64,000 nt of DNA from Promethearchaeota archaeon. Its GTDB lineage: Archaea > Asgardarchaeota > Lokiarchaeia > Sigyniarchaeales > SOKP01. Numbering within the stretch: position 1 is the stretch's first letter; every line of letters starts with the position of its first letter. This document shows positions 11,328-60,246 of the stretch, in pieces. Under the pieces are notes generated by a model. That model saw only the letters and a list, made by a program, of their open reading frames with translations, ran no database searches and was not told where the DNA came from. The stretch lies in assembly GCA_048941285.1 (NCBI GenBank), contig JBHLNS010000008.1, positions 1 to 64,000 on the forward strand. The letters run 5' to 3'. The translations under genes were made by a program, and so were the position numbers.

Positions 11328-11711
11328 ATGATGCTTAATGATAATTTATTAATTGGAAATATAAATAAAGAGCTTGAGAGATTAGAAAATTTAGCGGAGA
11401 TTATTGGGAGTGCTGTTGTGAATCGGAATGGATTACTAATTTCATCAAGATTACCGAGAGATATTGATGACAGAAAACTAGGCGCTTTAGCTGCCACAAT
11501 GTATGAAGGCATCGAAACAGCCACTTCAAACTTAAAGAATAATCAAATTAAAAGTATAACTGTAGAGTATCAGGATTACCAGTTAATAATTGTAGGGGTT
11601 AATGATAAAATTATTTTAGTTTCATTATCTGAATTAAACGTGAATTTAGGGCTAATATTAATAGAGATTGAAGAAAGCATAAATAATATTAAAAATATTA
11701 TAAAAAAGTGA
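11328..11711 (+). CDS. Roadblock/LC7 domain protein
   Basis: IIGSAVVNRNGLLISS…LGALAATM…ITVE…NLGLILIEI. Confidence 0.9.
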   Translation: MMLNDNLLIGNINKELERLENLAEIIGSAVVNRNGLLISSRLPRDIDDRKLGALAATMYEGIETATSNLKNNQIKSITVEYQDYQLIIVGVNDKIILVSLSELNVNLGLILIEIEESINNIKNIIKK

Positions 11712-11717
11712 TACCTT

Positions 11718-12455
11718 ATTTTAACCAAAGAACAAAAAGAAAGATTTAAAAGACAAATTATATCTCCTTTTATCGGAGAAAAAGGCCAAGAAATTATTTC
11801 GAAAATCAAAGTTCTACAAATTGGAGTAGGAGGCTTAGGTTCCCCTTTTGCAATATATCTCACAGCAGCAGGTATAAAAGAGTTAACTATTATCGATAAT
11901 GACACTCTTGATATTTCGAACTTACAACGACAGATCCTTTATAATGAAACTCAAATTGGAGAGGATAAAGTAAAATCAGCAAAAGAAGTATTAACTAAAC
12001 TTAATTCAGAAATTAAAATTAATGCTTGTAAGGATTATGTTGATGAAAAATCCATAAAGAGATACTTAAAGGAAGTTCAATATGATTTCATTGTTGATTG
12101 TTCTGATAATTTCCAAACTAAATTTTTGGTCAATAGAATCGCTGTAGAGAACAATTTGAAATGCATTATTGCGGGAATAAAGGATTTTTATGGACAAATT
12201 ATAACGATTGATCCAAAGCAGAGTGCTTGTTATGAATGCATTTTTACACCTATTAAATCTCTGCCTAGTGAAGCGCCTCTACCAGTAATAGGAGTTACTC
12301 CTGGGATTTTAGGAACTTTAGAAGCCTTAGAAGTTATAAAAACAGCATTAGGACTTCCGAACTTGGAAAACAAACTCCTAATGGTTAATCTAATGGACTT
12401 AAGCTTTAATATTATTGATATAATCAAGAATGAAAAATGCATTTGCTCACTATAA
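11718..12455 (+). CDS. ThiF/MoeB/HesA family E1-like adenylyltransferase (proposed ATT start; ORF track shows only 12126..12455)
   Basis: Frame open from 11712: RFKRQI…GEKGQ…IGVGGLGS…IIDND…SNLQRQ…VDCSDN…CYEC…CIC; no ATG/GTG/TTG before 12126. Confidence 0.88.
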   Translation: MLTKEQKERFKRQIISPFIGEKGQEIISKIKVLQIGVGGLGSPFAIYLTAAGIKELTIIDNDTLDISNLQRQILYNETQIGEDKVKSAKEVLTKLNSEIKINACKDYVDEKSIKRYLKEVQYDFIVDCSDNFQTKFLVNRIAVENNLKCIIAGIKDFYGQIITIDPKQSACYECIFTPIKSLPSEAPLPVIGVTPGILGTLEALEVIKTALGLPNLENKLLMVNLMDLSFNIIDIIKNEKCICSL

Positions 12456-12989
12456 ATTTGGATTATTCTCAAAATACTCTCTAAAATATTTACCCTTTTT
12501 CACGTAATTACCAGCTGTTTTCTCACCTATAAATTCTTCCTCCTTTGGCAAATTTTTTAAGAATTTAGCTGGAACACCAGCCCATAATTGCCTAGATGGC
12601 ACTTCTTTATTGGTTATTACTGCTCCTGCTGCGATCATTGAACCATCATTTATTTTAGTGTTATGAAGGATATTACTTCCAATACCAATCAAACATCCAT
12701 TTCCTATATTTACTGGGCCGTGAATCATTGCATGGTGCCCAATTATACAATTTGAGCCTATTAAAACTGATGTCCCCTCTTCAATATGAATTGTTACATT
12801 TTCTTGAATACTTGTGTTCTTTCCAATCTTTATTTGTCCTTGGTCTCCTCTTAAAACTGCTCCAAACCATACATTACTCCATTCACCTATTATCACATCT
12901 CCTATAATAACTGTAGTTGGGGAAATAAATGCCGTTTCGTGAATTTGTGGTCTTTTTCCTGTTCTTGGACATGGTATTATAATTGGCAT
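12450..12989 (-). CDS. Gamma-carbonic anhydrase / hexapeptide-repeat family protein
   Basis: IGDVIIG…WFGAVLRGD…IQENVTIH…IGHHAMIHG…WAGVPAK. Confidence 0.9.
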   Translation of the reverse strand: MPIIIPCPRTGKRPQIHETAFISPTTVIIGDVIIGEWSNVWFGAVLRGDQGQIKIGKNTSIQENVTIHIEEGTSVLIGSNCIIGHHAMIHGPVNIGNGCLIGIGSNILHNTKINDGSMIAAGAVITNKEVPSRQLWAGVPAKFLKNLPKEEEFIGEKTAGNYVKKGKYFREYFENNPNL

Positions 12990-13070
12990 AATTTTTCACA
13001 GCCTTTTTTTTATTGTAATATTATCCTAAAAATAAGAAACTTATGTTAATATGAAATTAAAAAATAGATA

Positions 13071-14744
13071 TTAATCTAGTAAATTGGCATGTTTAATTAT
13101 TTTTTTATGATCAAACGCTAGTTCTAAATCTTTCAAACGTTGTTTTGGTATAAGTTCTACATCTTTTGAATCATCACCACTTCTCATATTCGATGTATCA
13201 TCAGTTATGCATTTATAAGCAGTGGCATGAATATTACCTCTAGGATCACGTCCCTCTTCATCAAAAATGCCGACTTTTTCTATTATTTTCACGTTTAGAT
13301 TTGTTTCTTCTTTAACTTCTCGAAGTAATGCTTTCCTTGACTTTTCACGTCTTTCTATAAAGCCTCCTGGAAGTGCATAGAACCCTTGAAATGGTGGATA
13401 TTTACGTTTTATTAATACTATATTTCCATTTTTATCTTCTATAATCGCATCTACGGTGCGCCCAATTTTCACCTTCTTAACCTGCAATCTCATATAGATA
13501 TTAAATATTATAGTGACCACCAGGATTCCAGTTATTATTGTAGCAATTATAATATTTAGAAACATAGAAGCAAAATCTCCTTCTTGTAAACTAAAAGCGA
13601 TCATGATAACTCCACCTAAATCTGCTAATATTCCAGCTCCAAACAATAAATTTAACAAATTAAGACCTTTCTCTGTCCTTTTCTGAATTTCTTCGTTTTT
13701 CTTTTGATATAATTGTTGCATTGAGTCATAAATGATATCAAATTTCTCATTAATTCTCTTAACAATGCTTTCAATTTCAAATTCATTCAAAAGATGTTTT
13801 AATACAGTAGTATAATGTTGTCTCCTATTATAGTCCAATTCATTGTAAATCACACTTAAATTTGTTTGAATTAGGCCTCGTAAAAACCTCAAATTTCTAA
13901 TTTTATTTTCAATAGTCTCAATATCCTTAAATTCCTCTGATTGTGCTTTCAAGAATAGTAAATCGAGTGATTCATTAATTAATCTTAGAGCAAACAACAC
14001 CGTTCTCATTTTTGGGGTGGGTGTTATAACATATTCTTTCATATAGGAATCAAAGAAATTTTCGTAATTTTCTTCTGCCATATATACAAATCCAGAGTTT
14101 CTCCGAATGAAGTGCAATTCAGAAAGGCGATTGGACAAATTATTTTCAATACGTCTATCATAAAGAGTATCAGAATAGTCTGTCCATTGACCAGAATATA
14201 CTTCTGTCCAGTATCCGATTTCCTTTTTATACTTATTAATATTATCTTCCGTCCATTCGATAAGTTCAGGTTTTACTTTATTGGAAGTTGCGAATACAAA
14301 AATGGGACTTTCTAAATCGAAGATAATCCCTCTGTTTTCTTCTTTTGCAGAATATTCTCTTAGAAAAGATAATAAAATCTGAGGTATTTGCTGAATAAAA
14401 CTTGGTTTAATTTTGTTTTTTTTAATTGGTTCGCTCTTAAAATATTCTACATCAAATTGAAAGAAGCCAAGTGTATCATACTTTCTCTGGCTATTTTCAT
14501 CTTCATAAGCAAAATTCTCTAAATATGGAACCCAATTGCATCGTAATGACACATTTTTTGCCATATCAATAATCTCATCCCCGATTTCATCTCTAATTTT
14601 ATAATATATATCCTCTTTTTTCAAATTATTTAAGCGATTTTTTATCTGTTCCTCAAGGTCTTGGCTTTTTTTGTTCCCATCAACTAAATTGGCATTCAAA
14701 AAGCTACTAAAAAACCAAAATTCTTCGTTATATATAAATTCCAT
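13071..14744 (-). CDS. Membrane protein: CorA-like helical domain + 2 TM + C-terminal Nudix (ADP-ribose pyrophosphatase-like) hydrolase
   Basis: Long helical stalk into two TM segments, then TVDAII…LIKRK…ALPGGFIE…ALLREVKEETNL…RDPR…LAFDH. Confidence 0.75.
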   Translation of the reverse strand: MEFIYNEEFWFFSSFLNANLVDGNKKSQDLEEQIKNRLNNLKKEDIYYKIRDEIGDEIIDMAKNVSLRCNWVPYLENFAYEDENSQRKYDTLGFFQFDVEYFKSEPIKKNKIKPSFIQQIPQILLSFLREYSAKEENRGIIFDLESPIFVFATSNKVKPELIEWTEDNINKYKKEIGYWTEVYSGQWTDYSDTLYDRRIENNLSNRLSELHFIRRNSGFVYMAEENYENFFDSYMKEYVITPTPKMRTVLFALRLINESLDLLFLKAQSEEFKDIETIENKIRNLRFLRGLIQTNLSVIYNELDYNRRQHYTTVLKHLLNEFEIESIVKRINEKFDIIYDSMQQLYQKKNEEIQKRTEKGLNLLNLLFGAGILADLGGVIMIAFSLQEGDFASMFLNIIIATIITGILVVTIIFNIYMRLQVKKVKIGRTVDAIIEDKNGNIVLIKRKYPPFQGFYALPGGFIERREKSRKALLREVKEETNLNVKIIEKVGIFDEEGRDPRGNIHATAYKCITDDTSNMRSGDDSKDVELIPKQRLKDLELAFDHKKIIKHANLLD

Positions 14745-14852
14745 AATAAAGAGTTATTAATTAATTCAAGATATTAATATTAATAAAAAAAGGACTTATT
14801 TGTATTTAATTCTTTTAATAATATAATCTGTTTAAGTTCTCTATTTTGTAAA

Positions 14853-15797
14853 ATGACAGTTAAAGAATTACAGCAAGAAATTCTTAGTTTGAAGAATAAT
14901 AATGATGTAATCATTTTAGCACATTATTATCAACCAATAGAAATTCAAGAAATCGCTGACTTTTTAGGAGATTCTCTTGGTTTGTCACGTACAGCTAAGG
15001 AAAAAGCCAATTCTGAATATATAATTTTCGCAGGAGTAGATTTCATGGCTGAAACTGCTTCAATATTCAATCAAGATAAACATGTATTGATTCCCAATCC
15101 TGAATCTTGTTGCCCTATGGCTGCTTTTCTTACTCCAGAAATGGTTAGAAATTTTAAAAAGAATTATCCCAAACTTCCAGTAGTTGTATATGTTAATACA
15201 ACCGCAGCTGTAAAGGCAGAATCTGATATTTGCTGCACTTCTGCAAATTCTGTAAGGATTGTTGAAAAAATTAGCCATGAGTTTAAAGTTGATTCAGTAT
15301 TATTTGGCCCAGATGCAAATTTGGCAGATTATACTGAAGAGATCTCCAAGATAAAAACAATAAAAATGCCGGAGAAGGGGCATTGTTATGTTCATTCTCA
15401 AATTACTAAAGATGATATAATTATTATAAAAAAGAAATATCCGAAGGCAAAACTTATTGTTCACCCTGAGTGTAAAAGAGAAGTAAGAGAATTATCTGAT
15501 TATGTAGGTTCTACAACTCGGATGTATAATTATGTCAAAAAAAGTTCTTCTGAATATAATGAATTTATAATAGGGACAGAAGTTGGACTTTTAGAACGTT
15601 TAGCTCAAGATTTTCCAGATAAGAAATTCTATCTTGCAAAAGATAAACTTGTATGTTATAATATGAAGAAACATAATCTCGAATTAATTAAATACATTTT
15701 AGAAAATTTAGATGATAAAACGTTTGAGATTAAGGTTCCTCCTAAAATTGCTAAACGAGCTATTATACCAATTGAAAAGATGTTAGAATATTCTTGA
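14853..15797 (+). CDS. nadA: Quinolinate synthase
   Basis: ILAHYYQ…GDSL…GVDFMAET…CPMA…YVNT…CYVH…HPEC…CYNMK. Confidence 0.95.
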   Translation: MTVKELQQEILSLKNNNDVIILAHYYQPIEIQEIADFLGDSLGLSRTAKEKANSEYIIFAGVDFMAETASIFNQDKHVLIPNPESCCPMAAFLTPEMVRNFKKNYPKLPVVVYVNTTAAVKAESDICCTSANSVRIVEKISHEFKVDSVLFGPDANLADYTEEISKIKTIKMPEKGHCYVHSQITKDDIIIIKKKYPKAKLIVHPECKREVRELSDYVGSTTRMYNYVKKSSSEYNEFIIGTEVGLLERLAQDFPDKKFYLAKDKLVCYNMKKHNLELIKYILENLDDKTFEIKVPPKIAKRAIIPIEKMLEYS

Positions 15798-15836
15798 ACA
15801 CCAACTATAATTTCTTTATTTATAGGTATTAGTGAA

Positions 15837-16634
15837 ATGACATTTCTAATATTTAGAATCTGCTACATTATATTTGCTGCCATTATTGGAACTATAATGA
15901 TTATAATCTATACTAATAAATATAAGGGACTTCCTATTAATGTTTGGAAACCAGCAGTAGCTTGGACTCGAGCAATTATTTACTTTTCCTTCTGTAATAT
16001 AATTATAGCTATTTCTGGGACATTAGAACAATTAATAAATCAACCTTTTGCCACTATTGCCCAAATTACTAATCCTTATTGGTTATTATATTGTAGTTTT
16101 TGCTTTATTTATGTTTTTTTTGCATATTGGATCCTTTGGTCTCGTATGACACTCACGTTTAATCGTAAATATTTTTTAGTTTCAGAAATAATTTTTGGGA
16201 TAATATGGGGATTCAGCACAGGAGGATTACTACTTTCTTTTTATCATCTATGGAGTCTAATTGGAGTATTTGGATGGGTTAGATATTTGCTTAGTTTTGC
16301 ATCCATGGGTTTGTGGCAATATTTTATTCAAGATTATTTTTGGGACGTCTATGTTAGTCCAGAACATGACACTCCCAAATCTATTATAATTAAAACTTTA
16401 GTCTGTCATATCCCTAATATAGCAATCTGTCTAGGATTTCTCACAATTTGGAATAATTATGCTATTTATGTTTTACTTCAGACTTTTGCATTAATTGCAT
16501 CGACAATTTTTCAAAAATTCCCTGCACCGTGGGCAAAAGGAGAATTTAATGCACCTATGGTAAAAACAGGAATTGGAGGCCTGGCACGTGGTTCGGGATA
16601 TTTAGATGAAAAAAAGATTGAAATACATGAATAA
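15837..16634 (+). CDS. Hypothetical multi-pass membrane protein
   Basis: 265-aa ORF with ~7 hydrophobic segments. Confidence 0.7.
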   Translation: MTFLIFRICYIIFAAIIGTIMIIIYTNKYKGLPINVWKPAVAWTRAIIYFSFCNIIIAISGTLEQLINQPFATIAQITNPYWLLYCSFCFIYVFFAYWILWSRMTLTFNRKYFLVSEIIFGIIWGFSTGGLLLSFYHLWSLIGVFGWVRYLLSFASMGLWQYFIQDYFWDVYVSPEHDTPKSIIIKTLVCHIPNIAICLGFLTIWNNYAIYVLLQTFALIASTIFQKFPAPWAKGEFNAPMVKTGIGGLARGSGYLDEKKIEIHE

Positions 16635-16643
16635 ATAAATATC

Positions 16644-18257
16644 CTAAAAGAATGATGTTATTTTTCTTTGATTTCTTTTATTATCTAACCATTTCTTAAA
16701 ATCATTTGTTACTCTTCCTGACCATAATGCATTTTTTTTTGTTTCTTCATTAAAACTATAAATATCTTGATATGAAAAGTTATATTCGCCCATAAGGCGT
16801 CTCATTTTTAATACCCATTCTACAAATTTCTTATATAGTTTATTTTCTGATAAGGCAAATCTACTGTATGACTTTTCATAATAGTTTTTGTCATCCTCAT
16901 TGTAACCAGTGAAAAACCTATAATTTTGATTCGTCCAAAAAATCTTTTCTGTAGATGCCAAATATTTTTTGATATTGCAATCCCATAATTTTATCGTCTT
17001 AAGAGAAGGTAAATCGTTAAGTACTTCCGGTATTTCTGTTATAGTCGGATTATTAGATAAATCAATATGCTTTAAATTAACTAAATTTATAATACCATTA
17101 ATTTCTGTAATTCTATTATTCCTCAAAAATAATTTTTCCAATCTCTTAAGATTTTCCAGTCCTTCCACTTTTGTAATTTGATTATTATTTAATTTTAAAA
17201 CTCTTAGATTTGAAAATTTTTCAATCCCATCTAAATCAGAAATTTGATTATTGCTTAGATCGATCTCATTTAATGCATCTAATTTATCATTAATTGCATC
17301 TAAATTTGAAATTTTACGAATGTTTTGATTATTCAAATAAACCTTGTCATTTTTAAAAATAGTTACAACCCTGCCTTCATATTTTATGAAATTAAATTCG
17401 AATTTAAATTCTTTAAAATATTCGAAGTGTTTATTAAGATATTGGATCAATGGAAATTTTTTTCTTCCTTTTAATATTTTATATATACCCTTAACTAAAC
17501 CATCTCTATAGTTTTCAGGAACTTCATTTAATATTTTTGAGGTTATTAATGAAATATGTTCAATCCCAAAATCTCTAATTATTCTATGGATTAAGAAATT
17601 TATTTGAGATGTTAAATCTATGCCTGAATTTTGTTCAATTATCGCCCTTAGATCAATTGTAACATCACGTAAAAAACTTGGACTCAAATCATCTAAAATA
17701 CTTTCAAACTCATCAGAATTCAAATATCTTAAATAGCCATTTTGAATTAGGTATTGGATAACAGAAGGATGCTTACTCCCTAATCTTATGGCGATTTCCT
17801 CGGAAAAAACTCGTCTAGCCACAGGATCTCCAACTTCACATAATCTCTTCAATAGTGGAAAAGCTAAATTTCTATGAAGAATCCTAGTATCATAACCATT
17901 TTCCGCCCACACTTGAATATTAGAACAATGTCCTTGAAATTCTTCCTCAGGAGTTATACTCCTAGTTAAAAAATTATGATTACCTTCCATAGATCTGTCT
18001 AGTTTCTCCGCAGCTTCATCAATAGATTCAATCTCATTGTAATCTTCTATTTGTTCAACAGGAATATTAAGCAGTAAGTACATACACTGCTGGAATATAC
18101 GTCCTTTTACATAAATATTGGTTTTTCCACCCTCAAGTTTCAATTTAAGATATTCATTAATTTTGAATTCTTTTAATTTATTGAGAGTTTTGATTGAAAT
18201 GAAAAAGACCAATATTGAAATAACTAATAATAAATATATCCGATATTGATACATCAT
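16644..18257 (-). CDS. Lokiarchaeal-type leucine-rich repeat protein (start uncertain)
   Basis: N-terminal KEFKINEYL…SIDEAAEKL…EEEFQGHCSNIQVW…LAFPLLKRL domain; LRRs LxxLxLxNNxI. Confidence 0.8.
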   Translation of the reverse strand: MMYQYRIYLLLVISILVFFISIKTLNKLKEFKINEYLKLKLEGGKTNIYVKGRIFQQCMYLLLNIPVEQIEDYNEIESIDEAAEKLDRSMEGNHNFLTRSITPEEEFQGHCSNIQVWAENGYDTRILHRNLAFPLLKRLCEVGDPVARRVFSEEIAIRLGSKHPSVIQYLIQNGYLRYLNSDEFESILDDLSPSFLRDVTIDLRAIIEQNSGIDLTSQINFLIHRIIRDFGIEHISLITSKILNEVPENYRDGLVKGIYKILKGRKKFPLIQYLNKHFEYFKEFKFEFNFIKYEGRVVTIFKNDKVYLNNQNIRKISNLDAINDKLDALNEIDLSNNQISDLDGIEKFSNLRVLKLNNNQITKVEGLENLKRLEKLFLRNNRITEINGIINLVNLKHIDLSNNPTITEIPEVLNDLPSLKTIKLWDCNIKKYLASTEKIFWTNQNYRFFTGYNEDDKNYYEKSYSRFALSENKLYKKFVEWVLKMRRLMGEYNFSYQDIYSFNEETKKNALWSGRVTNDFKKWLDNKRNQRKITSFF

Positions 18258-18380
18258 TCAGATAGATTTGGATTTTTGGTGACACAGTTAAAGATAAATT
18301 AGTTTTTCAATATTAAAACCCCCATGATTTTAAAATTTATAAAAAAAAACTTAATTTAATCGGTCTTAATTACAATCGAC

Positions 18381-19481
18381 CTAATCTGGTATTAAAGTGA
18401 GCATATTAAGATTCAGATCCATATTAGTACCTTCCAAAATAGAATGTTGTATCATTTTTCCTTCTTCTGATAATGATAATTTTTTTGATTGAGCAATTCC
18501 TTCCATAAATTTTTCTCTTTCGATATCTAAAAACCCCATTTCTATAGCATTTTTAATAATTAGATTTAATACTAATAATTGAAATTGTTCTTGAATAGCA
18601 CCCCAAATTAAGCCCATTTCCTTTACCTGATCTGTTAATTCTTTAGCTATAACATCCAGATCATAAATTATATCGTAAATTCCTTCTTGAAGATTTATGA
18701 TTTCATCAATCAATTTATCTTTAATAAGTCGTAGTGTTGTGGTTCCCACCAAATCCTCTTCATGGAAAAAGAAATCGTTATTTTTACGTTTAATCAGGTA
18801 AAATCCAAAATCATTCCTTATTAACTTAAACCTAGCTAAATAATTGATTGCTTCTCTTGAAACACTGTATACTTCACAAAATTGATCTAAATTTAATTTA
18901 TACCCAGCAAATTCTTGAGAACTTGATTCATCAAAATGCCAATAATTTTTTGCAAAAGCGCCTTGACCTAAAATTGAGTTATAAAAAATGTAAAATAATG
19001 ACAAATACAAATCTCTGTCCTGTTGTAAATCAAAAAAATTGTCTCCAATTTTAGATATGATTCTTACAATATGCATTATAAAGTGAGCTTCAACATTAAT
19101 TTCTTTATAAAAATCTATTAAATCCTCAAGTTTTTTTACATTTTCTTTTAATTCATTAACTATAAATAACTCGTCTTTTAACTTTAATGGTTTTTCTCCC
19201 AATTTTTCTATTCCTTTCTCAGTGATAATGTAAGCACGGTACTGTTTATTCGTTTGTTTATTTGTAACTATCCGTTGTTCCACATATTTATTTCTTCTAT
19301 GGTTATTAAGATATTTAGAGACTGTAGATCTACTTAAATTTGAATATTTTATTAAATTGGTAAATCTTTGTGGTCCTAGATTTCTAAGAATGAATAATAT
19401 TCTTCTACTATTATCTTCAATGCTACTGGACTTTTTAAGTAACTCAATCTTTAACTTTTTTGAGATATTCCAGCTTTCCAT
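18381..19481 (-). CDS. Winged-helix (ArsR-like) transcriptional regulator with long C-terminal domain
   Basis: ILFILRNLGPQRFTNL…LSRSTVSKYL…YIITEKG. Confidence 0.7.
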   Translation of the reverse strand: MESWNISKKLKIELLKKSSSIEDNSRRILFILRNLGPQRFTNLIKYSNLSRSTVSKYLNNHRRNKYVEQRIVTNKQTNKQYRAYIITEKGIEKLGEKPLKLKDELFIVNELKENVKKLEDLIDFYKEINVEAHFIMHIVRIISKIGDNFFDLQQDRDLYLSLFYIFYNSILGQGAFAKNYWHFDESSSQEFAGYKLNLDQFCEVYSVSREAINYLARFKLIRNDFGFYLIKRKNNDFFFHEEDLVGTTTLRLIKDKLIDEIINLQEGIYDIIYDLDVIAKELTDQVKEMGLIWGAIQEQFQLLVLNLIIKNAIEMGFLDIEREKFMEGIAQSKKLSLSEEGKMIQHSILEGTNMDLNLNMLTLIPD

Positions 19482-19539
19482 AATAATATAATATAAGTCC
19501 AAATATATAAAACTATACCTTTTTTCTAAACTTAGTTTG

Positions 19540-19581
19540 AAAAATTACTAAAATACAAATGTTTGTAATTTTAGTATTTTT
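19540..19581. promoter_or_regulatory. Long imperfect inverted repeat, candidate operator
   Basis: TACTAAAAT-ACAAA-tg-TTTGT-a-ATTTTAGTA between a divergent wHTH regulator and a small ORF. Confidence 0.5.
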
Positions 19582-19674
19582 TAGATATCATTAATATAAA
19601 GCTTTAAAAACTATGCTTTTAATATGAGAAATTGGTTGTTTATTCAAAACTCATTTAAATGGAAAAAAAAAATT

Positions 19675-19866: not shown

Positions 19867-20023
19867 ATTATCTCAAAAATAGTATTAGATAAATAAAAAA
19901 AACACATTCTATCCCTTCTAAACCAAAGTTCGAGATCTTAAACGAAAATCCTTATCTTATAAATCTGATAATTATAAAGTAATATAAGTAAGTTTATAAA
20001 AGATTAAAGGGGTGTGATAAAAA

Positions 20024-20278
20024 ATTACCCAATATAGATTTAGGCTAACCGGAGTCCCTCCAGATCAAGCTATAAAATTAATTGAATTAGATCCAAATAA
20101 TTCAATTGCAGAAATTAAAAAAACAGTACAGCGTGAGTATAAATTAAATCCGATTTTAGCTATACAATTTATTTTTAAAGGAAAAGTCTTACCTGATCAA
20201 TTGAAGTTTGCTAAGATTGGTATTCATCCTAAAAAGGATGTAATAACAGTTATGGCTACTCAGGCTGGTGGAATTTAG
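20024..20278 (+). CDS. Ubiquitin-like protein (84 aa, proposed ATT start, not in ORF track)
   Basis: (M)TQYRFRLTG…IELDPNNSIAEIKKTV…IQFIFKGKVL…KIGIHPKKDVITVMATQAGGI*; SD-like GGGGTGTGA upstream. Confidence 0.85.
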   Translation: MTQYRFRLTGVPPDQAIKLIELDPNNSIAEIKKTVQREYKLNPILAIQFIFKGKVLPDQLKFAKIGIHPKKDVITVMATQAGGI

Positions 20279-20317
20279 ATAATTCCTATAAGGAGACGTA
20301 TTTTTCACGGGGTCATG

Positions 20318-32984: not shown

Positions 32985-33899
32985 TCATTTTATAAATTTC
33001 TGTTTAAATGATTCGATAGTACTTGATATTTCATTAATGTGAATTTTTAATTCCTTTGGATGAATTTCTTTTAATTTATCTAGATTTTCTATAATTTCCT
33101 TCAATTCATCTATCCAAAGATTCATAAGAATTTCTTTTTCTTTGTTTTTACAAGCTAATTTTATTTCATCATTTATCCATTCTTTTGCGCTTTCTTTTAT
33201 CTGTTTTTTTTGAACATCAAGGGTGATTTTTACTAAATCTTGTTCATTTTTTAAGCTCTCTAACATGAGTTCTAGATTATTCTTAAACTCTGTGTTTTCT
33301 TCATTATATTTTTTAATTATATCTCGTAGAACTTCTTCTTTAATACCAAACTCTTCCCTGACATGATTAACCTTTGTAGCAAATTCTTCACTCAAATTGT
33401 TGATTTTTCCTATGATTGATTCTATGTGATTTTTAAAATTAGTTATATGTTTATCTAACTTTTGGTCAACCGTCATAAATTTATTTTCTATCTCTAAATT
33501 AAGTGTTTTAAAGTTAGTCTCTAGTTTATTTGAAAGTGATGTGAATTTATCTTTTAATTCACTTTCAAACAAGTTTGTTGAATCCTCGATTATCTTGGTT
33601 GTTGAAGTTTCTTGTTTTTCTAGGTTTTGCTTTTGTTGCGTGAGCTGTTCTTTTGTATATTGTTCTAATTTATTGATTTGGTCACTCGATTTCGCTTCAA
33701 GAGCATCAACTTTTTCATTTAGACCTTGATCAAGTTTATTCAACCGATTAGATAATTTTTTTTCTAAATTGTTTATTTGTTCATTTGTTTTTTGCTCTGA
33801 TTTTTTTATCTGTTCATTAATTTTGTTATCTAGCTTGCTAAGTAGTTCTTTTAATTTCTGGAATTCCTTTAAAGATATTTCTTCAGATATTTTGTTCAC
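32985..33899 (-). CDS. All-helical coiled-coil protein
   Basis: 304 aa rich in K/E/N/L heptads, no catalytic motif. Confidence 0.75.
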   Translation of the reverse strand: MNKISEEISLKEFQKLKELLSKLDNKINEQIKKSEQKTNEQINNLEKKLSNRLNKLDQGLNEKVDALEAKSSDQINKLEQYTKEQLTQQKQNLEKQETSTTKIIEDSTNLFESELKDKFTSLSNKLETNFKTLNLEIENKFMTVDQKLDKHITNFKNHIESIIGKINNLSEEFATKVNHVREEFGIKEEVLRDIIKKYNEENTEFKNNLELMLESLKNEQDLVKITLDVQKKQIKESAKEWINDEIKLACKNKEKEILMNLWIDELKEIIENLDKLKEIHPKELKIHINEISSTIESFKQKFIK

Positions 33900-49550: not shown

Positions 49551-49649
49551 TTTTTATCACTATTTTTTTTTTATTTTTTTTTTAATAATAATCTAAATTT
49601 ATGATTTTTATAATTACTTTATAGAATTTAAAAATAAGAATTCTTTTAA

Positions 49650-52245: not shown

Positions 52246-52345
52246 AATTAGAAATAATACATATTCTTTTTTTTTAATTTTTTATCCTTTTTCTAAAATT
52301 AACATAGATAAATTTAATTTGTAAATAGCACTTTAAAATACAGTT

Positions 52346-53071
52346 ATGTCTCATCCACCCATTTTGTTATTTGATTTTGATGGTGTTGTTATAACTCAAA
52401 AATCTCTGGAATATACGGCATCCAAATTAATAAAAAATGATTTTTATGGATGGAAAAATATTCAGAATATGAGATTAATAGATTTTGCTAGACTTATTGA
52501 GGAATCCGACTCCAAAAATCAATTGGCAGCTCTAAAAAGAATTAACAAAGCATATAAGCCATATATTCCAAGTATATGGAAAAGAAATCTATTTTTCATT
52601 AAATTCAGGCGTATGTATCCTATGCTTGAAAAGTATGAGATATTAAAACCTAATCTAGAACTAATTTTAAACCACCTTAAAAGGAACAATTTTCAATTAG
52701 GAATTGTCTCTAATACAAGTAAAAATAGATTAGATTTTTTTCGAAAGAAATTTAATTTAGATAAGTATTTTTCTGTCTTTATCTCTCGTGATGATTCTCC
52801 ATTAAGGAAACCTAACCCATACCCAATTATAGTAGCATTAATTAAAATTAAGAAAAATTTTAATTATTCAATAAATAAGAACAATGTGTATTATATCGGT
52901 GATCTTCCAGCAGATATAGAATGTGCTAGGAACGCAGGTATCAAAAGTATTGCTTTACTTTCTGGTCATGGCAGAAAGGGTGATTTAGAAAAATCGAATC
53001 CAACTTATTTGATTCCAAATATTAAGAACATTTTAGAAATTGATTATTTCAAAAAATTCTTATTGAATTGA
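52346..53071 (+). CDS. HAD-family hydrolase (phosphoglycolate phosphatase-like)
   Basis: FDFDGV, IVSN, RKPNP, YIGDLPADI. Confidence 0.9.
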   Translation: MSHPPILLFDFDGVVITQKSLEYTASKLIKNDFYGWKNIQNMRLIDFARLIEESDSKNQLAALKRINKAYKPYIPSIWKRNLFFIKFRRMYPMLEKYEILKPNLELILNHLKRNNFQLGIVSNTSKNRLDFFRKKFNLDKYFSVFISRDDSPLRKPNPYPIIVALIKIKKNFNYSINKNNVYYIGDLPADIECARNAGIKSIALLSGHGRKGDLEKSNPTYLIPNIKNILEIDYFKKFLLN

Positions 53072-53090
53072 ACACTTTTTAACATTAAAT

Positions 53091-55820
53091 ATGTTTAATC
53101 TTGAAGAATTTAAGGATAGCTTAATTCTTGAAAAAGTTGATAAGCTAAATAAATACTTTTTTAAGAAAAAATCTGATAAAATATCTAAAATACTCAAAGA
53201 ATTTTTAGCTTTATTAGATCAACAAGAATATGTTGTACCAATTACATATATTTTAAGTATTATAGCAGAAAAGGAAATAGAACTTATTTCTGAAGGATTA
53301 ATAGAAAGAATTGAGGTTTTTTTCAACTCTGAGAATACTAAACTAAGGATTAACTCACTAATTATTATTGGATTTTTTATACAAGCAAATCCAAATTATA
53401 TTAAAAAATATTTTCAAGAATTCGTAAAATTCCTATTAGATGATTTTGAGGATGTTAGAAATAATATTCACTACTTTCTGCCAAAATTGGTTGAATTAAA
53501 ACCTGAATTAGCAAAAGATAATATAGATATCATCTTACAGAGTTTTGAAATTGAACAAAACAATGATAATCTTATTTCTTTATTAAAATTATTGCTTAAA
53601 TGTGAAATTCTTGAATTTGATCAGTTATATACTATTAAAAATATTTTAAAATCAATTCTTAACATAATTGAAATCAAAGAAAACTCTAAATTATTTAGAG
53701 AAGTAATAAATATAATAAAAAAGGTATATTCAGAGCTCGTTAAACTCGATTTGGAGAAAGAAGGTGCTGGAATAATCATAAACTTATTAGAAAATCAATT
53801 TTTAATGAAAAAAACAAATTTTACTGAAGTAGGTAGAAAAACTGGGATACAATTAAAAGACTATTTAAAGAAATTTGTAAAATCTAAGTTAAAGGATAAA
53901 AAAATCTTTTTTTATATTAAAACAAAAGAAAATTTGATATATATTTATGAATTAGAAAAAAGCAAATTAAAAAGATTCTTTGAGCAGAAAATTAAAATAT
54001 CAGATGAGCTTATCAAGAAAACTTTTTCGCAAGTTATAGATAATGGCTCAGAATTAAAAATTTTTATCAAAACGTTAAATAACTTAAAATTAATTGATGG
54101 TTATTATTCTAACATTGGATTTTTTTATCCAACTATTTATATAAAGTCAATGTTATTAGAAGATTTACAAACAAATGGAGCTATAAGCATAAAAAAGTTC
54201 AATTTTCTTCCACATAATTTTATTGAAAGAATCATTAAAGATATTTCCAAGGTTACCAATCAAAAATTTTTAAGACATAAAGATAAAGAAACTTATATAT
54301 CTTTAAAAAAAGTTAAAGATCAAATTAATTCTGAAGCAGCAAAAAAAAGTGTTATAGAATTACGACAATATCGTGAGATTTTATTTGATGAAGATTTCAT
54401 AAAATTGATAAAAAATATGCCTAGAGCGTTTTTATCAGAATTTCATAAAGGAACACAGTGGTTAACTAATCTAGGGTCACAAAAAATTAGTAATGAGATC
54501 CAAAATTCTAAAATAGTTGGTTATTTTAACATTTCTAAAGTATCTGATAAATTAAATATAGCAGAGCTTCTATTATTAGACGTTTTTGAACAATTTGTAG
54601 ATTATAGAAGTGGGATTTGGAATAGAGAAAAAAATATCTTTTATTATTCAAAGTATTTAAAAGAAAAAATCGATCAAATTAGTTTAGTTTCTGATGAACA
54701 TGAAAAATTGCAGCAAATTGAAGTGATCTCTACAGAACTTAATATTGATAAGAATCATATTTTATCCAAAATAGATGAAAATTTACAATTGATTGCAGAA
54801 GAAATAAAACAGAAAGATCAAATAATATTAAGTGAATACCTCCAAAAAACAGGGATGGAATTAGATGATTTTTTGACATTTATTGATGATTTAGATATTC
54901 ATTACTTCAGAAAGGCGGATTTATTAATTTTTAATACTCAGAAAATTGATGAGGCAAAAAATGAAATAAAATATATGTTAATTGATAAGTCTAAATCAGA
55001 GGATTATATACCACTAGGAACAATGAAATTTATTCAATCAACTCTGATTGAAGATTTAATGAAGGAATTACTACAAGATGGAAAGTTAAAAGGCATTTTT
55101 CATGAAGAGGAAGGAGAACTCATTTTTTATACGGAACGAGGAATCGGTAAGTTGATGCTAGAAAATAGCTTACTTTTTTCATTTCATGATTTATTTTATG
55201 GTAAGGAATTAAATCAAGAAGAAATTGATTTATTGAAGGGAATATTTGAAGATTTAATTAAAAGTAGAGTTATCAAAGGAGATTTTGATGAGGAAACGTT
55301 AACTTTTTCTAGTGATGAAGTATTATTTGCGAAAGATTACAATATTGTTTTATCGGAATTTGAAAAAATGGTAGAAAATTATATTAAGAATTTTGAAATT
55401 GAATTCCAAAAGATCAAAAAAATTCTTATTAAGAGAGAAGAAACAATTTTTCCACAAGAGATAAAGTATATTCAAGATATTATTGACAAAATTAATGAGA
55501 AATATATTAATTGGAGAAGTGGTTTAGAAGCTTTTATACGTAGAACTAATAAAAAGTTATTAAGAGATCAAGGTATTAGCGTAAGACAATATAAAACCAT
55601 TCTCTCAAAAGAAAAAAAAGAAGAAATAAAATCATTAGAGCAAGATCCCGAAGTACATGAGCTTTTAAATAAATTTAATAATTGGGTAAAAAGATATAAT
55701 AAAATTGAATTAAAATATCCAAATATAATATTTTACCAAAAAAGATTGATGAATAATCCAGAAGACAGGGAGTCTAATACTAAATTAATAGAATTATTAG
55801 ATGAATTAGAGTTAAAATAG
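53091..55820 (+). CDS. Large protein: HEAT-like repeats + tandem winged-helix/PCI-like repeats
   Basis: N-terminal helical repeats (LLDDFEDVRNN); repeated helix-G-x-I-x-I…wing units; IKGDFDEETLTF PCI-like wing. Confidence 0.6.
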   Translation: MFNLEEFKDSLILEKVDKLNKYFFKKKSDKISKILKEFLALLDQQEYVVPITYILSIIAEKEIELISEGLIERIEVFFNSENTKLRINSLIIIGFFIQANPNYIKKYFQEFVKFLLDDFEDVRNNIHYFLPKLVELKPELAKDNIDIILQSFEIEQNNDNLISLLKLLLKCEILEFDQLYTIKNILKSILNIIEIKENSKLFREVINIIKKVYSELVKLDLEKEGAGIIINLLENQFLMKKTNFTEVGRKTGIQLKDYLKKFVKSKLKDKKIFFYIKTKENLIYIYELEKSKLKRFFEQKIKISDELIKKTFSQVIDNGSELKIFIKTLNNLKLIDGYYSNIGFFYPTIYIKSMLLEDLQTNGAISIKKFNFLPHNFIERIIKDISKVTNQKFLRHKDKETYISLKKVKDQINSEAAKKSVIELRQYREILFDEDFIKLIKNMPRAFLSEFHKGTQWLTNLGSQKISNEIQNSKIVGYFNISKVSDKLNIAELLLLDVFEQFVDYRSGIWNREKNIFYYSKYLKEKIDQISLVSDEHEKLQQIEVISTELNIDKNHILSKIDENLQLIAEEIKQKDQIILSEYLQKTGMELDDFLTFIDDLDIHYFRKADLLIFNTQKIDEAKNEIKYMLIDKSKSEDYIPLGTMKFIQSTLIEDLMKELLQDGKLKGIFHEEEGELIFYTERGIGKLMLENSLLFSFHDLFYGKELNQEEIDLLKGIFEDLIKSRVIKGDFDEETLTFSSDEVLFAKDYNIVLSEFEKMVENYIKNFEIEFQKIKKILIKREETIFPQEIKYIQDIIDKINEKYINWRSGLEAFIRRTNKKLLRDQGISVRQYKTILSKEKKEEIKSLEQDPEVHELLNKFNNWVKRYNKIELKYPNIIFYQKRLMNNPEDRESNTKLIELLDELELK

Positions 55821-55827
55821 GTCATTT

Positions 55828-56109
55828 TTATTTTCTTTTACCGTTATTAGCAAGAAAATCGTCTACATCAATTTTTTCTCTTGAAATAATTTTATAAGTT
55901 TTTGGATTAGTGATCCCGTTCAACCTTAAAATTCCTTGATCTTCAAGATATTTCAAAGCTCTCCAAATAAAATTAATTTTAGATCGATTTGAAGATTTAA
56001 TATTATTACATCTTCTTATTCTTTTAGCATTTACAATAGTTACATTGTTATCAATTAATTTATTAATCGCTTCTACTGTTTCTTTTAAATTCTTCTGAAA
56101 AAAATCCAT
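55828..56109 (-). CDS. Small winged-helix-like protein
   Basis: INFIWRALKYLEDQGIL…PKTYKI. Confidence 0.65.
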   Translation of the reverse strand: MDFFQKNLKETVEAINKLIDNNVTIVNAKRIRRCNNIKSSNRSKINFIWRALKYLEDQGILRLNGITNPKTYKIISREKIDVDDFLANNGKRK

Positions 56110-56335
56110 ATTTAAAGCGAACCCTCAAATTAAAAGTTAATTACTAGTACTCTCCTCAATTAAAATAATAATTAAAAAAGTTAAATTGACATTGCTTAAG
56201 TATTATAAAATTATATTTAGAAGTTTATATAGTTTTTGCATGTAAAGAGACTGAGCCTCAAAACTTTAACTCATCGAAATATTGAATAGAATAGACAATT
56301 TAATTTAATAGAAGTTAACTCATTTATTTTTTGGA

Positions 56336-57940
56336 TTAATGTCGGAAAACTCTTTTTCCACAGAATATTAAAGCACAGCCTAATTCGTCTGCGCGTTTAA
56401 TTACTTCCTTGTCTCTTATGGAACCTCCGGGATTAATAATAGCTTTTGCACCACTATTTACAGCAACTTCTAAACCATCAGGAAATGGAAAAAAAGAATC
56501 TGTACCCATAAAGGCCCCTTTTAGTTCTTCTTCATGCCCAAATTCTTTTGCTTTTTGAGCTGCTAACTTAACTACATGAACTCTACTATGTTGTCCAGCT
56601 CCAATACCCAATGTATAAATACCATCATCATAGATTTGAGCAAAACATGCTGAATTTGATTTAGCCCATTTTGATACTCTATAAGCAAAAAGTAATGCCT
56701 CTTTTTCAAGTTCATTTACTTTTTTTTTGCTAACTACATTCCATTCTTTAACAATTGGTTTAGTATCATACTCTTGAACAAGAATACCCCCTAATACTCC
56801 CCTAATTTCTAAATTCTTATTAATTTTACTACTTTTACTAATTAATTCTTTATAGTCAATAATTCTTAAATTCTCCTTTTGTTTTAATATCTCTAAAGCT
56901 TCTTCCTCGAAAGAGGGTGCGATTATAACTTCTACAAATATTTTTTCTTGATTTATGATAAAATCTGCTACTTCCCTCTTTAGTTCTTTGTTAACTCCCC
57001 AAATCCCTCCGAATGCAGATAAAGGATCTGTACTAAATGCTTTTTTAACTGAGGTTAATTGATCTTTTTTATCTATAGCTACCCCATTTGGACTTGTATG
57101 TTTTAAAATTGCTGTTACGTAGTGTTGAGTATCAAAATCCAAAAGAACCCGTATACAAGAGTCTATATCTAAATAATTGTTAAATGAGAGGTCTTTACCA
57201 CTAAGTTGTTTCAAGAGATGAAGCCCATATTGAGAAGAAGTATCTTTATAATAAGCAGCTTCTTGATCCCAGTTTTCTCCATATCTGCAATCTTGTACTT
57301 TTTCATAAACTTTTATCATGGTATTAGGAAAAATAGCAGCTGGATTGTAAAATTTTTGTAAAAAGTTTGCAATTGAAGCATTATAATCTGCCATAATTGA
57401 AAAAACCTCTTGGGCTAGTAATAATCGAGTATTTTCGGTAATTGCTCCCTTATTTTTTCTCATCTCATCAATAATTTCATCATAATATTCTGGACTGGGA
57501 ACTACAATAACATCTGGAAAATTTTTTGCTGCTGCGCGAATCATTGTAGGGCCACCGATATCAATCATCTCTAATGCATCATCAATTTTTATTCCAGGTT
57601 TCTCAATTGCTTCTTTAAATTGATATAAATTACAAACAACCATATCGATTGGTTTAATATTATATTTTTCAGCTTCGTCGGTATCTTTCTTTAATCCTCT
57701 ACGATATAAAATGCCTCCTTCAATTCTTGGATGTAATGTCTTAATTCTGCCATTAAACATCTCAGGAGTTTCAGTGAAGTTAGAGATTTTTGTATAAGAA
57801 ATTCCATTTTTCTCCAAAATATTTCCAGTACCTCCTGTAGATAAGATGTCAACTCCAAACTCACTTACCAATACCTTTACAAACTCAAGGATTCCAGTTT
57901 TATCAAAGACACTAATAATTGCTCTTTCTATTTTTTTCAT
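56336..57940 (-). CDS. purH: Bifunctional AICAR transformylase/IMP cyclohydrolase
   Basis: AIISVFDKTG, STGGT, GRIKTLHP, IDIGGPTMIRAAAKN, RYGEN, KHTSP, DSFFPF, PGGSIRD, RVFRH. Confidence 0.97.
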   Translation of the reverse strand: MKKIERAIISVFDKTGILEFVKVLVSEFGVDILSTGGTGNILEKNGISYTKISNFTETPEMFNGRIKTLHPRIEGGILYRRGLKKDTDEAEKYNIKPIDMVVCNLYQFKEAIEKPGIKIDDALEMIDIGGPTMIRAAAKNFPDVIVVPSPEYYDEIIDEMRKNKGAITENTRLLLAQEVFSIMADYNASIANFLQKFYNPAAIFPNTMIKVYEKVQDCRYGENWDQEAAYYKDTSSQYGLHLLKQLSGKDLSFNNYLDIDSCIRVLLDFDTQHYVTAILKHTSPNGVAIDKKDQLTSVKKAFSTDPLSAFGGIWGVNKELKREVADFIINQEKIFVEVIIAPSFEEEALEILKQKENLRIIDYKELISKSSKINKNLEIRGVLGGILVQEYDTKPIVKEWNVVSKKKVNELEKEALLFAYRVSKWAKSNSACFAQIYDDGIYTLGIGAGQHSRVHVVKLAAQKAKEFGHEEELKGAFMGTDSFFPFPDGLEVAVNSGAKAIINPGGSIRDKEVIKRADELGCALIFCGKRVFRH

Positions 57941-57999
57941 AAAAATCAATTTGGACTAATTTAGTTACATTTTAATAATATATGTAAAATAGAAAAGTT

Positions 58000-58039
58000 T
58001 ACTATTGTTGAAACCTAAATTTATAAAGTTTCAATAGTA
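58000..58039. promoter_or_regulatory. Inverted repeat flanking a TATA-like box between purH and the SRPBCC gene
   Basis: TACTAT-tgt-TGAAAC-ctaaatttataaa-GTTTCA-ATAGTA. Confidence 0.4.
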
Positions 58040-58156
58040 GAATACAAAGCAATTAGTATTATAAAAAAATCCTGTTTTTTTCTATTTCTACGACACAAAT
58101 GTATAAAAATGATGATGCCCTAAATTAAACCGAAATCAAATGGAGGTTATCATTAT

Positions 58157-58588
58157 ATGAGATTAGAGAAAAAAATTGAGATTAATTCTACTCCTAAAAG
58201 GATATATGATATTGTAATTGATGGTGAAATTGTAACAAAATGGAACTTAGGGGTTGATGATATACAACCGAAAGAGGAAGGTAAAAATTTTCTGTTAAAA
58301 ACTAAAGTTGGAGATATCCTAATTGTTAATTGGGAACAAAAGGAAAATGAATATGTAACTTGGCATATGAAAGATAGTGACATGAATTCTATTGGATATA
58401 TTCTAAAACCAAAAGGAGATATGGTGCATACAACCCTATGGGTTGATTTTGAGAACAAGAAACTCAAAAAGTCTTTTGAGAAAATAGGTGACTTAACATT
58501 AAAAAGTTTAAAGAATTTCATTGATTTTATTGAAGAAGGTGGAAACATAGAAGATTATGATAAGAAACAACTCATGGTAATTCCTTAA
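58157..58588 (+). CDS. SRPBCC (START-like) family protein
   Basis: KKIEINSTPKRIYDIV.D…KWN…LKSLKNFI; SD GGAGG. Confidence 0.75.
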   Translation: MRLEKKIEINSTPKRIYDIVIDGEIVTKWNLGVDDIQPKEEGKNFLLKTKVGDILIVNWEQKENEYVTWHMKDSDMNSIGYILKPKGDMVHTTLWVDFENKKLKKSFEKIGDLTLKSLKNFIDFIEEGGNIEDYDKKQLMVIP

Positions 58589-58642
58589 GTTATTCCTAAT
58601 CTTTTTTTTTTTTATATAAAGGCTGAAAGTCAGCGAGGAAAA

Positions 58643-60118
58643 TTAAAACTTTCCAATAAGATCATGAGGTTGAGTTTCAAGTTGCCCTACTGCTGAAATA
58701 ATTCCTAAAGCAGCTTCCTTCATCTCTTGAACAGATTTTGCTCCCGCATATATCATCCCGTTAGCTAATCCTTCTTTTAATGTTGCTAAAACTCCATTTA
58801 CATCTCCCACATAAGGCACATAATTTGAAACTCCCTCTGTTAGCATTTTTGAACCTTCAACATAACGATCTGATATATAACCAAATGTTCTTGCTTCTTT
58901 ACTTCCCATTCCGCGATAGACTTTTACCTTCCTTCCAGCGATAGTGTCAATAAAACCTGGAGATTCATCTGTACCAGCAAAAAAATGTCCAGACATTATC
59001 AAATCAGCCCCAGCAGCAATCGCTTTTGGTAAGTCACCTGGTTTAGTAAAACCTCCGTCTGCAATTAATGATAATTTTGGATTATAATCTTGTATGGCAT
59101 CAGCTACTTGCGCTGTAGCAAATAGAGTAGGAGCACCAACTCCAGTTTGTATCGAAGTTGTGCAAATAGACCCAGAGCCCATTCCCACTTTCAATCCAAT
59201 AAATCTTTCCTCTACAAAATCACATTTTGTAATCAAATATTCTGCTGCTTGATAAGTTCCAATATTCCCAAGAACAAAATCAGAATTTAAGAGCTTCATA
59301 ATTTTTGCTGTACCTTCAATGTCAGCCTTTTTAAAAAAATCAGCAACATCAATAAAGAAAATGTCAACATATTTATCAATTTCTTTTAACATATTCTGAG
59401 CTTGTGAGGATTCTGGAAATCTAGGTGACAATGCTAAAGCACATAATAAATGTCCTTCTTCATCTTTTGAAGCGAGAGGAAATTCTGGAGCTAAATCTTT
59501 TTTCGTAATCAATCCTTTTAAATACCCATCTTTGTCTATAATTGGCAATTTTTCTTTCCGTGACTCATAAAGAATTTTCAAAGCATCCTCCCTAGAGGCT
59601 CCTGGTTTAATAGAAATGACATTTTTTGTCATATAATCTTTTACAACCCCATTTTGCATATCATGCTCTGAAAAGGGAATATCCCGCTTGGTGAAAATAC
59701 CACAAACTTTCTTAGATTCGTTTACTACCACTATACCGCTTATATTATAGTTATCCATCATGTATTTTGCTTTAGCAACTTTGGCATCAGGATTAATAGT
59801 AGCTACATGTTCATCATCAATTACAAAGGATCTAGCTCTTTTTACAATTCTACACATTTCTAATTGTCTCTCGTAGGAGCAATTACGGTGGAGAACTCCT
59901 AATCCCCCATGTAATGCCATATTGATCGCCATTAACTCCTCAGTAACAGTGTCCATAGCTGAAGACATTATAGGAAGTGCTAAATGATGATTTCCTAAAT
60001 TTGAGGATAAATCAATTTCTTGAGGCGTGAAATTTGTAAATCCGGGGAGGATCAATACATCTTGAAATGTAGCAATTATATCTTCTGAATGGACTTTTTT
60101 GCGATAATTCTCAGTAAT
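58643..60118 (-). CDS. guaB: IMP dehydrogenase with CBS pair (proposed ATT start at 60118)
   Basis: TFQDVLILPG, SSAMDTVT, GMGSGSICTT, IADGG, YRGMGS; the conserved N-terminus extends 21 codons upstream of TTG 60055. Confidence 0.95.
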   Translation of the reverse strand: MTENYRKKVHSEDIIATFQDVLILPGFTNFTPQEIDLSSNLGNHHLALPIMSSAMDTVTEELMAINMALHGGLGVLHRNCSYERQLEMCRIVKRARSFVIDDEHVATINPDAKVAKAKYMMDNYNISGIVVVNESKKVCGIFTKRDIPFSEHDMQNGVVKDYMTKNVISIKPGASREDALKILYESRKEKLPIIDKDGYLKGLITKKDLAPEFPLASKDEEGHLLCALALSPRFPESSQAQNMLKEIDKYVDIFFIDVADFFKKADIEGTAKIMKLLNSDFVLGNIGTYQAAEYLITKCDFVEERFIGLKVGMGSGSICTTSIQTGVGAPTLFATAQVADAIQDYNPKLSLIADGGFTKPGDLPKAIAAGADLIMSGHFFAGTDESPGFIDTIAGRKVKVYRGMGSKEARTFGYISDRYVEGSKMLTEGVSNYVPYVGDVNGVLATLKEGLANGMIYAGAKSVQEMKEAALGIISAVGQLETQPHDLIGKF

Positions 60119-60246
60119 TTCTAGTCACCTTCTTGAAAATCAAATATAAATTGATTTCTATTCCTATTAAAACATATATAAATTATATCAGACTTAAAAA
60201 TTTTAGTATTGAATTACTGATTAAAAAAAAAGAAAAATTAAAAAAT

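Follow-up and report, generated by a model that had tools for sequence, protein, structure and literature searches.

Shine-Dalgarno-led ATT codons as probable start sites of three conserved genes in a Lokiarchaeia genome, and signs of a wider use of near-cognate starts

The window analysed here, the first 64 kb of contig C68 (JBHLNS010000008.1) of a Promethearchaeota archaeon, carries three conserved genes that appear to begin with ATT: one coding for a ThiF/E1-like protein, one for a ubiquitin-like protein (Ubl), and guaB, coding for inosine monophosphate (IMP) dehydrogenase. The assembly comprises 3.55 Mb in 101 contigs with a G+C content of 29.7%, and the closest database proteins are named Promethearchaeota or Lokiarchaeota. 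Each of the three ATT codons lies six bases behind a GTGA and has an in-frame stop two codons upstream; the letters and coordinates are those reported in the initial annotation, which, made from the sequence alone, proposed that this lineage routinely initiates translation at AUU. The features are listed in Table 1.

At the ThiF site, GTGA (11708-11711) is followed by the spacer TACCTT and by ATT at 11718-11720. The in-frame TGA at 11709-11711, two codons before ATT, is also the stop codon of the roadblock/LC7-like open reading frame (ORF) upstream, and past ATT the first in-frame ATG, GTG, or TTG is codon 137 of 245. A paralog of the roadblock protein encoded elsewhere in the genome (L133) matches the Pfam family Robl_LC7. 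The Ubl site reads GGGGTGTGA-TAAAAA-ATT, with GTGA at 20014-20017, the spacer TAAAAA, and ATT at 20024-20026, with TGA and TAA in frame ahead of it (20015-20020); here the first canonical in-frame codon is a TTG, codon 60 of 84, and database relatives of the protein carry PF00240. The guaB site, on the minus strand, consists of GTGA (60128-60125, with the in-frame TGA at 60127-60125), the spacer CTAGAA, and ATT at 60118-60116, and its first canonical codon, a TTG, is codon 22 of 491 and falls within the conserved DVLILPG. The proposal that no upstream ATG, GTG, or TTG serves the conserved N-termini of these genes is borne out, the Pfam domains beginning at residue 11 in ThiF and at residue 17 in IMP dehydrogenase. 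The same spacing precedes canonical starts in the window, as had also been stated: ATGA-N6-TTG at 822, ATGA-N6-GTG at 33899, and GTGA-TAAAAA-ATG at the ORF at 49553. The last belongs to GTGATAAAAAATG (49560-49548, minus strand), of a 13-mer family with 2 matches against 0.06 expected.

Table 1. Features at the three loci with candidate ATT starts and at an ATG-started comparison site (window coordinates)
Feature	Position	Strand	Remarks
Roadblock/LC7-like gene, upstream of ThiF	11283..11711	+	Family name read from translation; TGA 11709-11711 inside GTGA, in ThiF frame
Shine-Dalgarno-like AAGTGAT before ThiF	11706..11712	+	6 bases between GTGA and ATT
ThiF/MoeB-type E1-like gene, ATT start	11718..12455	+	Pfam ThiF profile 2-191 = residues 11-199
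Shine-Dalgarno GGGGTGTGAT before Ubl	20010..20018	+	In-frame TGA and TAA follow
Ubiquitin-like gene, 84 amino acids, ending GG-I, ATT start	20024..20278	+
Canonical comparison site GTGATAAAAA	49548..49560	-	Spacer as in Ubl, then ATG
IMP dehydrogenase gene, 491 amino acids, ATT start	58643..60118	-	Pfam IMPDH profile 3-91 = residues 17-104
Shine-Dalgarno AAGGTGA before guaB	60125..60131	-	TGA within = in-frame stop

The 3' end of the 16S rRNA found in the assembly is ...GCGGCTGGATCACCTCCT (GGATCACCTCCT), and the Shine-Dalgarno (SD) consensus is therefore AGGAGGTGATCC. It contains GGTGA, so that the archaeal SD core named in the initial annotation lies within the anti-SD complement of the genome's own 16S rRNA. 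In front of ATG starts, the region from -14 to -8 is rich in G, and GTGA peaks at a spacer of 6-7. The GTGA-N6 signature shared by the three genes is present, but it is not a special signal; it corresponds to the general SD optimum, with the TGA of the SD placed in frame.

The codons at the start position were compared among the orthologous loci of 40 relatives, of which 24 belong to the same genus and 16 to three other families of the order. In ThiF the aligned codon is ATT in 15, ATC in 5, and ATA in 1 of the 21 genus loci; GTGA-N6-ATH is found in all 21, with GTGA ending the roadblock gene each time. ThiF of the other families has ATG at the aligned codon in 7/7 loci, and in an eighth ATG stands one codon on. 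The aligned codon of Ubl is ATT in 16, ATA in 1, and ATG in 3 of the 20 genus loci. A [GA]GTGTGAT motif (GGGTGTGAT; GAGTGTGAT in L009) lies at the same distance in 14 of the 16 loci with ATT, the remaining two, L007 and L012, having AAAGGTGGAAT and GGAGCGTGAAG, and the three loci with ATG show a weaker motif (AGGTTTGA, AGGTTAGA, TAGTTTGA). All 10 Ubl loci of the other families have ATG at the aligned codon or at most two codons away. The distribution in guaB is different: among 24 genus loci, ATG occupies the aligned codon in 13 and the next codon downstream in 4, GTG is found in 4, ATA followed by TTG in 1, and ATT in only 2 (the genome itself and L069). Its four nearest relatives read GGTGAC or GGTGTC-N5-ATG, with the same spacing and in a nearly identical context. 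Because of these codons at the aligned position, the guaB ATT is read as having arisen recently at a genuine start codon, and those of Ubl and ThiF as old and maintained. The initial annotation had named starts of the orthologs at downstream canonical codons as an outcome that would speak against it; the aligned codon carries ATG or ATT, ATC, or ATA instead. It had also asked whether the underlying data might contain ATG, and the guaB ATT stands in an independently built contig of public run X1, 230 bases long, which spans 59959-60188 with 0 differences (X1 may be the source sample).

In the genome as a whole, where GTGA-N6-X stands at the opening of an ORF of 100 codons or more, X is ATG in 58 cases, TTG in 23, ATT in 20, AAA in 15, and GTG in 9, followed by ATA (8), TTT (7), ATC (5), CTG (4), AAT (4), and TAT (3). 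The genome-wide enrichment of ATT at the SD optimum, on which the proposal had been made to depend, is apparent from its excess over AAT, TAT, and TTT and from a test of spacing. An SD hit was defined as a match of at least five bases to the anti-SD complement, with the spacing normalised, and 1322 such hits lie close to the 5' ends of the 2854 ORFs judged likely to code for protein. Of these hits, 98 fall in ORFs of 100 codons or more in which no canonical codon occurs in frame between the ORF start and a point eight codons past the scanned region. Among these 98 hits, the codon at spacing 6 is near-cognate in 34/55 (ATT 15, ATA 11, ATC 5, CTG 3), compared with 28/217 at the control spacings 0, 3, 9, and 12 (4/52, 9/55, 10/55, and 5/55, respectively; Fisher p = 9e-13). 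ATG behind the same SD motifs peaks at spacing 5-6 and the near-cognate codons at 6. With leaders of at least 20 codons, a strong SD (at least a 5-mer) precedes ATT in 42/834 cases and the pooled AAT, TAT, TTA, TTT, and AAA in 67/3322 (p = 8e-6), and the other near-cognate codons are raised as well (ATA 27/602, ATC 10/215, CTG 6/40). The proposed AUU habit is supported, but not as a property of ATT alone; ATA, ATC, and CTG behave alike.

Strong-SD-led canonical starts number 253 for ATG, 23 for GTG, and 99 for TTG. After background subtraction about 40 near-cognate genes are left, that is, about a tenth of the strong-SD-led starts and about 1.4% of long ORFs. The rate of about 1-1.5% is a lower bound, with Ubl (85 codons) and the gene of the initiation factor aIF1 (spacing 9) lying outside the screen; the 3 near-cognate starts among the roughly 55-60 genes of the window exceed it. 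In G006, a genome of the same genus used as a positive control (800 kb), near-cognate codons make up 8/14 at spacing 6 and 13/55 at the control spacings (p = 0.02). Two genomes of another family gave suggestive but underpowered numbers: 3/8 at spacing 6 and 4/8 at spacing 9 in G038 (800 kb), and 3/4 at spacing 6 in G032 (400 kb). The ORF and SD-hit totals of G038 and G006 are identical (669 and 328); the sequences were verified to be different and the identity was taken as a coincidence. Small as these counts are, the habit probably extends across the order.

All 54 candidate ORFs, translated from the candidate codon, were run against Pfam, and support was scored where a domain sets in before the first canonical codon is reached and no more than a few residues from the candidate start. 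Nineteen candidates were supported, 4 gave a result against, 2 were ambiguous, and 29 uninformative, so that 19 of the 23 judgeable candidates were supported. Among the supported genes are those of L21e (ATA), L7Ae (ATT), S10 (ATA), Pop5 (ATC), MvhD/FlpD (CTG), and a ubiquitin-conjugating E2 enzyme (CTG). The others code for ThiF, IMP dehydrogenase, two Ras-like GTPases, a roadblock protein, an enoyl-CoA hydratase, a CoA-binding synthetase, two ferredoxin-type proteins, DUF134, DsrE, a phosphodiesterase, and Usp. In L7Ae the aligned codon is ATT in 21 and ATA in 3 of the 24 genus loci, and ATG in 6/6 loci elsewhere; in S10 it is ATA in all 20 genus loci. The 10 S10 loci of other families comprise 6 with ATG aligned, 2 with ATG one or two codons upstream, 1 with GTG directly behind ATG, and 1 with ATT (G030). 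The two CTG genes vary more: the E2 gene has CTG in the genome itself and TTG (6), GTG (1), ATG (15), or ACG (1) in 23 relatives, and MvhD has CTG in 6 loci (the genome itself included), TTG in 8, and another codon in 1. Together, Ubl (ATT), the E1-like ThiF (ATT), and the E2 enzyme (CTG, C40:26455-27018) make up a ubiquitin-like system of which all three members have non-canonical starts. The C-terminus of Ubl consists of GG plus one extra residue.

The single SUI1/aIF1 gene, located on the minus strand of C34 with the start at 2696, reads AGGTTGTGA TAA TAG AGT ATT AAA GAC..., and its first in-frame canonical codon is a GTG, codon 30, behind the zinc knuckle. Residues 5-103 of the protein align to residues 3-101 of the solved aIF1 of Methanocaldococcus jannaschii (4mo0, E = 2e-25). 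The start is ATT in all 21 readable genus loci, a 22nd being masked by N. Eight loci of other families have TTG (3), ATG (2), GTG (1), GTG three codons upstream of ATA (1), and ATA behind an in-frame stop (1). The gene of the fidelity factor thus has a weak start of its own, conserved in the genus. The initial annotation had listed changes at fidelity residues of aIF1 as something to look for; when 22 sequences from the genus were aligned with 8 from other families, nothing obviously genus-specific emerged in the protein.

We consider the three ATT codons to be, with a probability of about 0.87, genuine SD-led near-cognate start codons, belonging to a use of AUU, AUA, AUC, and CUG that extends across the lineage. 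In such genes the near-cognate codon stands at the position of the canonical start of the orthologs, an SD complementary to the genome's own 16S rRNA precedes it at the spacing used for ATG, and a canonical start that would include the conserved N-terminus is absent. Pairing of the SD with the 16S 3' end would set the small subunit so that a codon 5-7 bases behind GGTGA comes to lie in the P site, where the ordinary initiator tRNA (anticodon CAU) could pair with AUU through a third-position mismatch, and the protein would then presumably begin with methionine. At least 1-1.5% of long genes in the genome, the genus, and probably the order would start in this SD-led manner at AUU, AUA, AUC, or CUG, among them L7Ae, S10, L21e, an E2 enzyme, and aIF1, which normally rejects such codons. 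The relaxed start-codon selection deduced in the initial annotation is consistent with this picture. ARAGORN returned only 13 tRNAs, with introns allowed or not, and a tRNA with the anticodon CAU was not among them; the initiator tRNA, located by means of a short motif, is of the ordinary type, with A1:U72, a GGG/CCC stem, the anticodon CAU, and an intron. A second initiator-like tRNA with another anticodon was not found with blastn and one pattern only.

Gene finders limited to ATG, GTG, and TTG would place the starts at the next canonical codon downstream and leave the open frame in front untranslated, and truncated forms of L7Ae of 112 and 104 amino acids do exist in public databases. Such starts would, however, cost 136 of the 245 residues of ThiF, 59 of the 84 of Ubl, and the beginning of the IMP dehydrogenase barrel, and the supposed leaders are conserved as protein, lying within the Pfam profiles from position 2-3 on; we regard downstream initiation as very unlikely. 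Similarly little weight is given to a change of ATG to ATT through an error of sequencing or assembly, or through a recent inactivating mutation. In its favour, the assembly, in 101 contigs, is of the metagenome type, and for guaB the four nearest relatives have ATG in a near-identical context. Nevertheless, ATT, ATC, or ATA occurs in 17/20 (Ubl) and 21/21 (ThiF) genus loci from separate assemblies, and the separately built X1 contig, possibly from the source sample, reads the guaB start region identically.

Two further explanations concern ThiF. The upstream stop codon lies inside the SD, two codons before the start codon, in all 21 genus loci, as expected if ribosomes terminating at the TGA of the roadblock gene re-initiated six bases further on and AUU were tolerated only through this coupling. 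Ubl, guaB, L7Ae, S10, and aIF1 are preceded by intergenic DNA with no terminating ORF, and coupling would in any case be an addition to near-cognate initiation and not an alternative to it; as an explanation it seems very improbable. The roadblock and ThiF ORFs also share one frame, and ARAGORN found a tRNA-SeC, which would be compatible with a fusion protein produced by read-through of TGA. The two spacer codons vary freely across the genus, only GTGA-N6-ATH being invariant, and a tandem TGATGA is present in 5 of the 21 loci, which argues against read-through; moreover, the ThiF orthologs of other families are separate genes with ATG. This is the least probable of the explanations considered, and can practically be set aside.

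Several points weigh against the near-cognate initiation that we favour. That the ribosome starts at ATT, which residue it inserts, and what regulatory purpose this might serve are inferred from sequence and comparison. The guaB ATT occurs only in the genome itself and in one other, the nearest relatives having ATG, and might be a recent and possibly deleterious mutation; the related genomes are, besides, non-independent samples. Four of the 23 judgeable Pfam candidates are false, two being internal fragments and two having a canonical Met that fits the N-terminus of the family. When the spacing behind GTGA is 3, ATT does not outnumber AAT, and the signal therefore rests on the contrast between spacings. 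An expectation-maximisation estimate of start-codon use over the 2854 ORFs was discarded as too noisy, since it assigned 10% to AAA and several percent to types of second codon.

SD-led starts at AUU, AUA, or AUC have precedents in bacteria, namely infC and pcnB of Escherichia coli, and NCBI table 11 counts all three codons among starts. The bacterial cases resemble the present one in that the near-cognate codon stands at the SD optimum and is kept among relatives, and infC also in that the gene of a factor policing start codons has AUU itself (IF3 there, aIF1 here). They differ in being a few regulatory cases, whereas here, in Archaea, the fidelity factor is a homologue of eIF1 and dozens of genes, including those of ribosomal proteins, would be involved. 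Near-cognate initiation is also a feature of eukaryotes, in which eIF1 limits its own synthesis because the context of its start codon is poor. The archaeal factor aIF1 is homologous to eIF1, codons such as CUG and those of the AUU type appear to be used here too, and the start of the fidelity factor's own gene is weak; yet positioning would depend on SD pairing and not on scanning, and the weak feature is the codon and not its context. By analogy with bacterial IF3 and eukaryotic eIF1, the AUU of aIF1 might close a feedback loop on start-codon stringency and co-regulate the genes of L7Ae, S10, L21e, the RNase P protein Pop5, Ubl, and the E1-like and E2 enzymes, a tentative idea that we think rather unlikely to be correct. 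If it were true, the stringency of start-codon selection would be a tunable global control in archaeal relatives of eukaryotes.

The accepted archaeal start codons are AUG, GUG, and UUG. Full-text literature searching did not find a published genome-wide account of starts of the kind described here; the only remark met with concerns a single gene. It is found in a passage on the Loki-type tubulin gene AtubA, for which a "rare ATT start codon" is noted together with a database entry that is too short (PMC13394414). The lineage and the reasoning in that passage are the same as here (a missing first beta strand, a plausible distance to the ribosome-binding site, and a truncated database entry), but one gene is mentioned in passing, without a genome-wide or comparative statement. 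In the relevant part of a ribosome profiling study of Haloferax volcanii, about 30% of putative alternative initiation sites are near-cognate and were set aside (PMC7261190). These sites likewise hint at archaeal ribosomes starting at near-cognate codons, but, as presented there, they are minor alternative sites, whereas the conserved main ORFs considered here would have no other codon to start from. AUU is not mentioned in those passages of a review on archaeal initiation that match a search for the term (PMC7531240), and in the matching passages of a paper on Pyrococcus abyssi aIF1 it occurs only as letters in a model mRNA sequence (PMC6237735).

The expectation that annotation misses or truncates such genes holds in part: some are cut short or read through, but some public entries are full-length with ATT called. 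The L7Ae protein of the genome is recorded at 123 amino acids, beginning MSYVK, so some pipeline did call ATT; its relatives in public databases are 125, 124, 123, 112, and 104 amino acids long. Relatives of Ubl are found as forms beginning MWKK or MWNN, in which the GTG-TGA of the SD is read as Met-Trp, as read-through forms, and as truncated forms; the 84-amino-acid Ubl of the genome itself is not among the best 120 database hits. Calling canonical starts only would shrink Ubl to 25 residues and ThiF to 109. Asgard gene models are raw material for arguments on the origin of eukaryotes, and callers restricted to ATG, GTG, and TTG would lose or truncate conserved genes. In a lineage whose initiation factors are of the eukaryotic type, one would not expect weak starts to be used routinely on ribosomal proteins and aIF1, and the origin of start-codon stringency and of its self-regulation, both its manner and its timing, would become testable in cultured relatives.

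One further frame in the window, at 5018-5476 on the minus strand, is open for 152 codons and has a strong SD and ATA at 5473. It has no Pfam match and overlaps an opposite-strand ORF (4308-5774), and is probably a shadow frame.

Interrupted genes were encountered elsewhere in the genome. The single aEF-2 gene (L391) contains a 30-base insert (G000 C1:142733-142762) with an in-frame TAA at 142739-142741, between ...MTDSD and DEEQERGITI. An insert at the same place is present in 6 of the 20 readable genus loci, the genome itself included, and absent from the other 14 and from 6/6 loci of other families. Its fold comprises a 9-bp hairpin, which a compensatory change in L396 preserves, and a 5-bp helix with the upstream exon, and it could represent either a mini-intron or an element for translational bypass; a literature search found nothing on such an insert. 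In the gene of ribosomal protein L11 (L392; G000 C52, ~72301-72336), about 36 bases with two in-frame stops lie between ...VTGGR and ASGGPPIGP. Match lengths suggest that G008 and G013 lack some 36-39 bases there and that other relatives have inserts of varying size. In a family III CoA-transferase gene (L393; G000 C33, minus strand, just upstream of 43248), a different frame encodes the first 16-17 residues, and about 34 bases counted from a T7A4 run separate them from the rest of the gene; an insert of this kind or a frameshift may be responsible. Finally, in an HdrA-like gene (G000 C67, minus strand, upstream of 11274), TGA stands where a Cys codon would be expected (RIGVYICR*GVNIS); with the tRNA-SeC of ARAGORN present in the genome, this TGA probably codes for selenocysteine.

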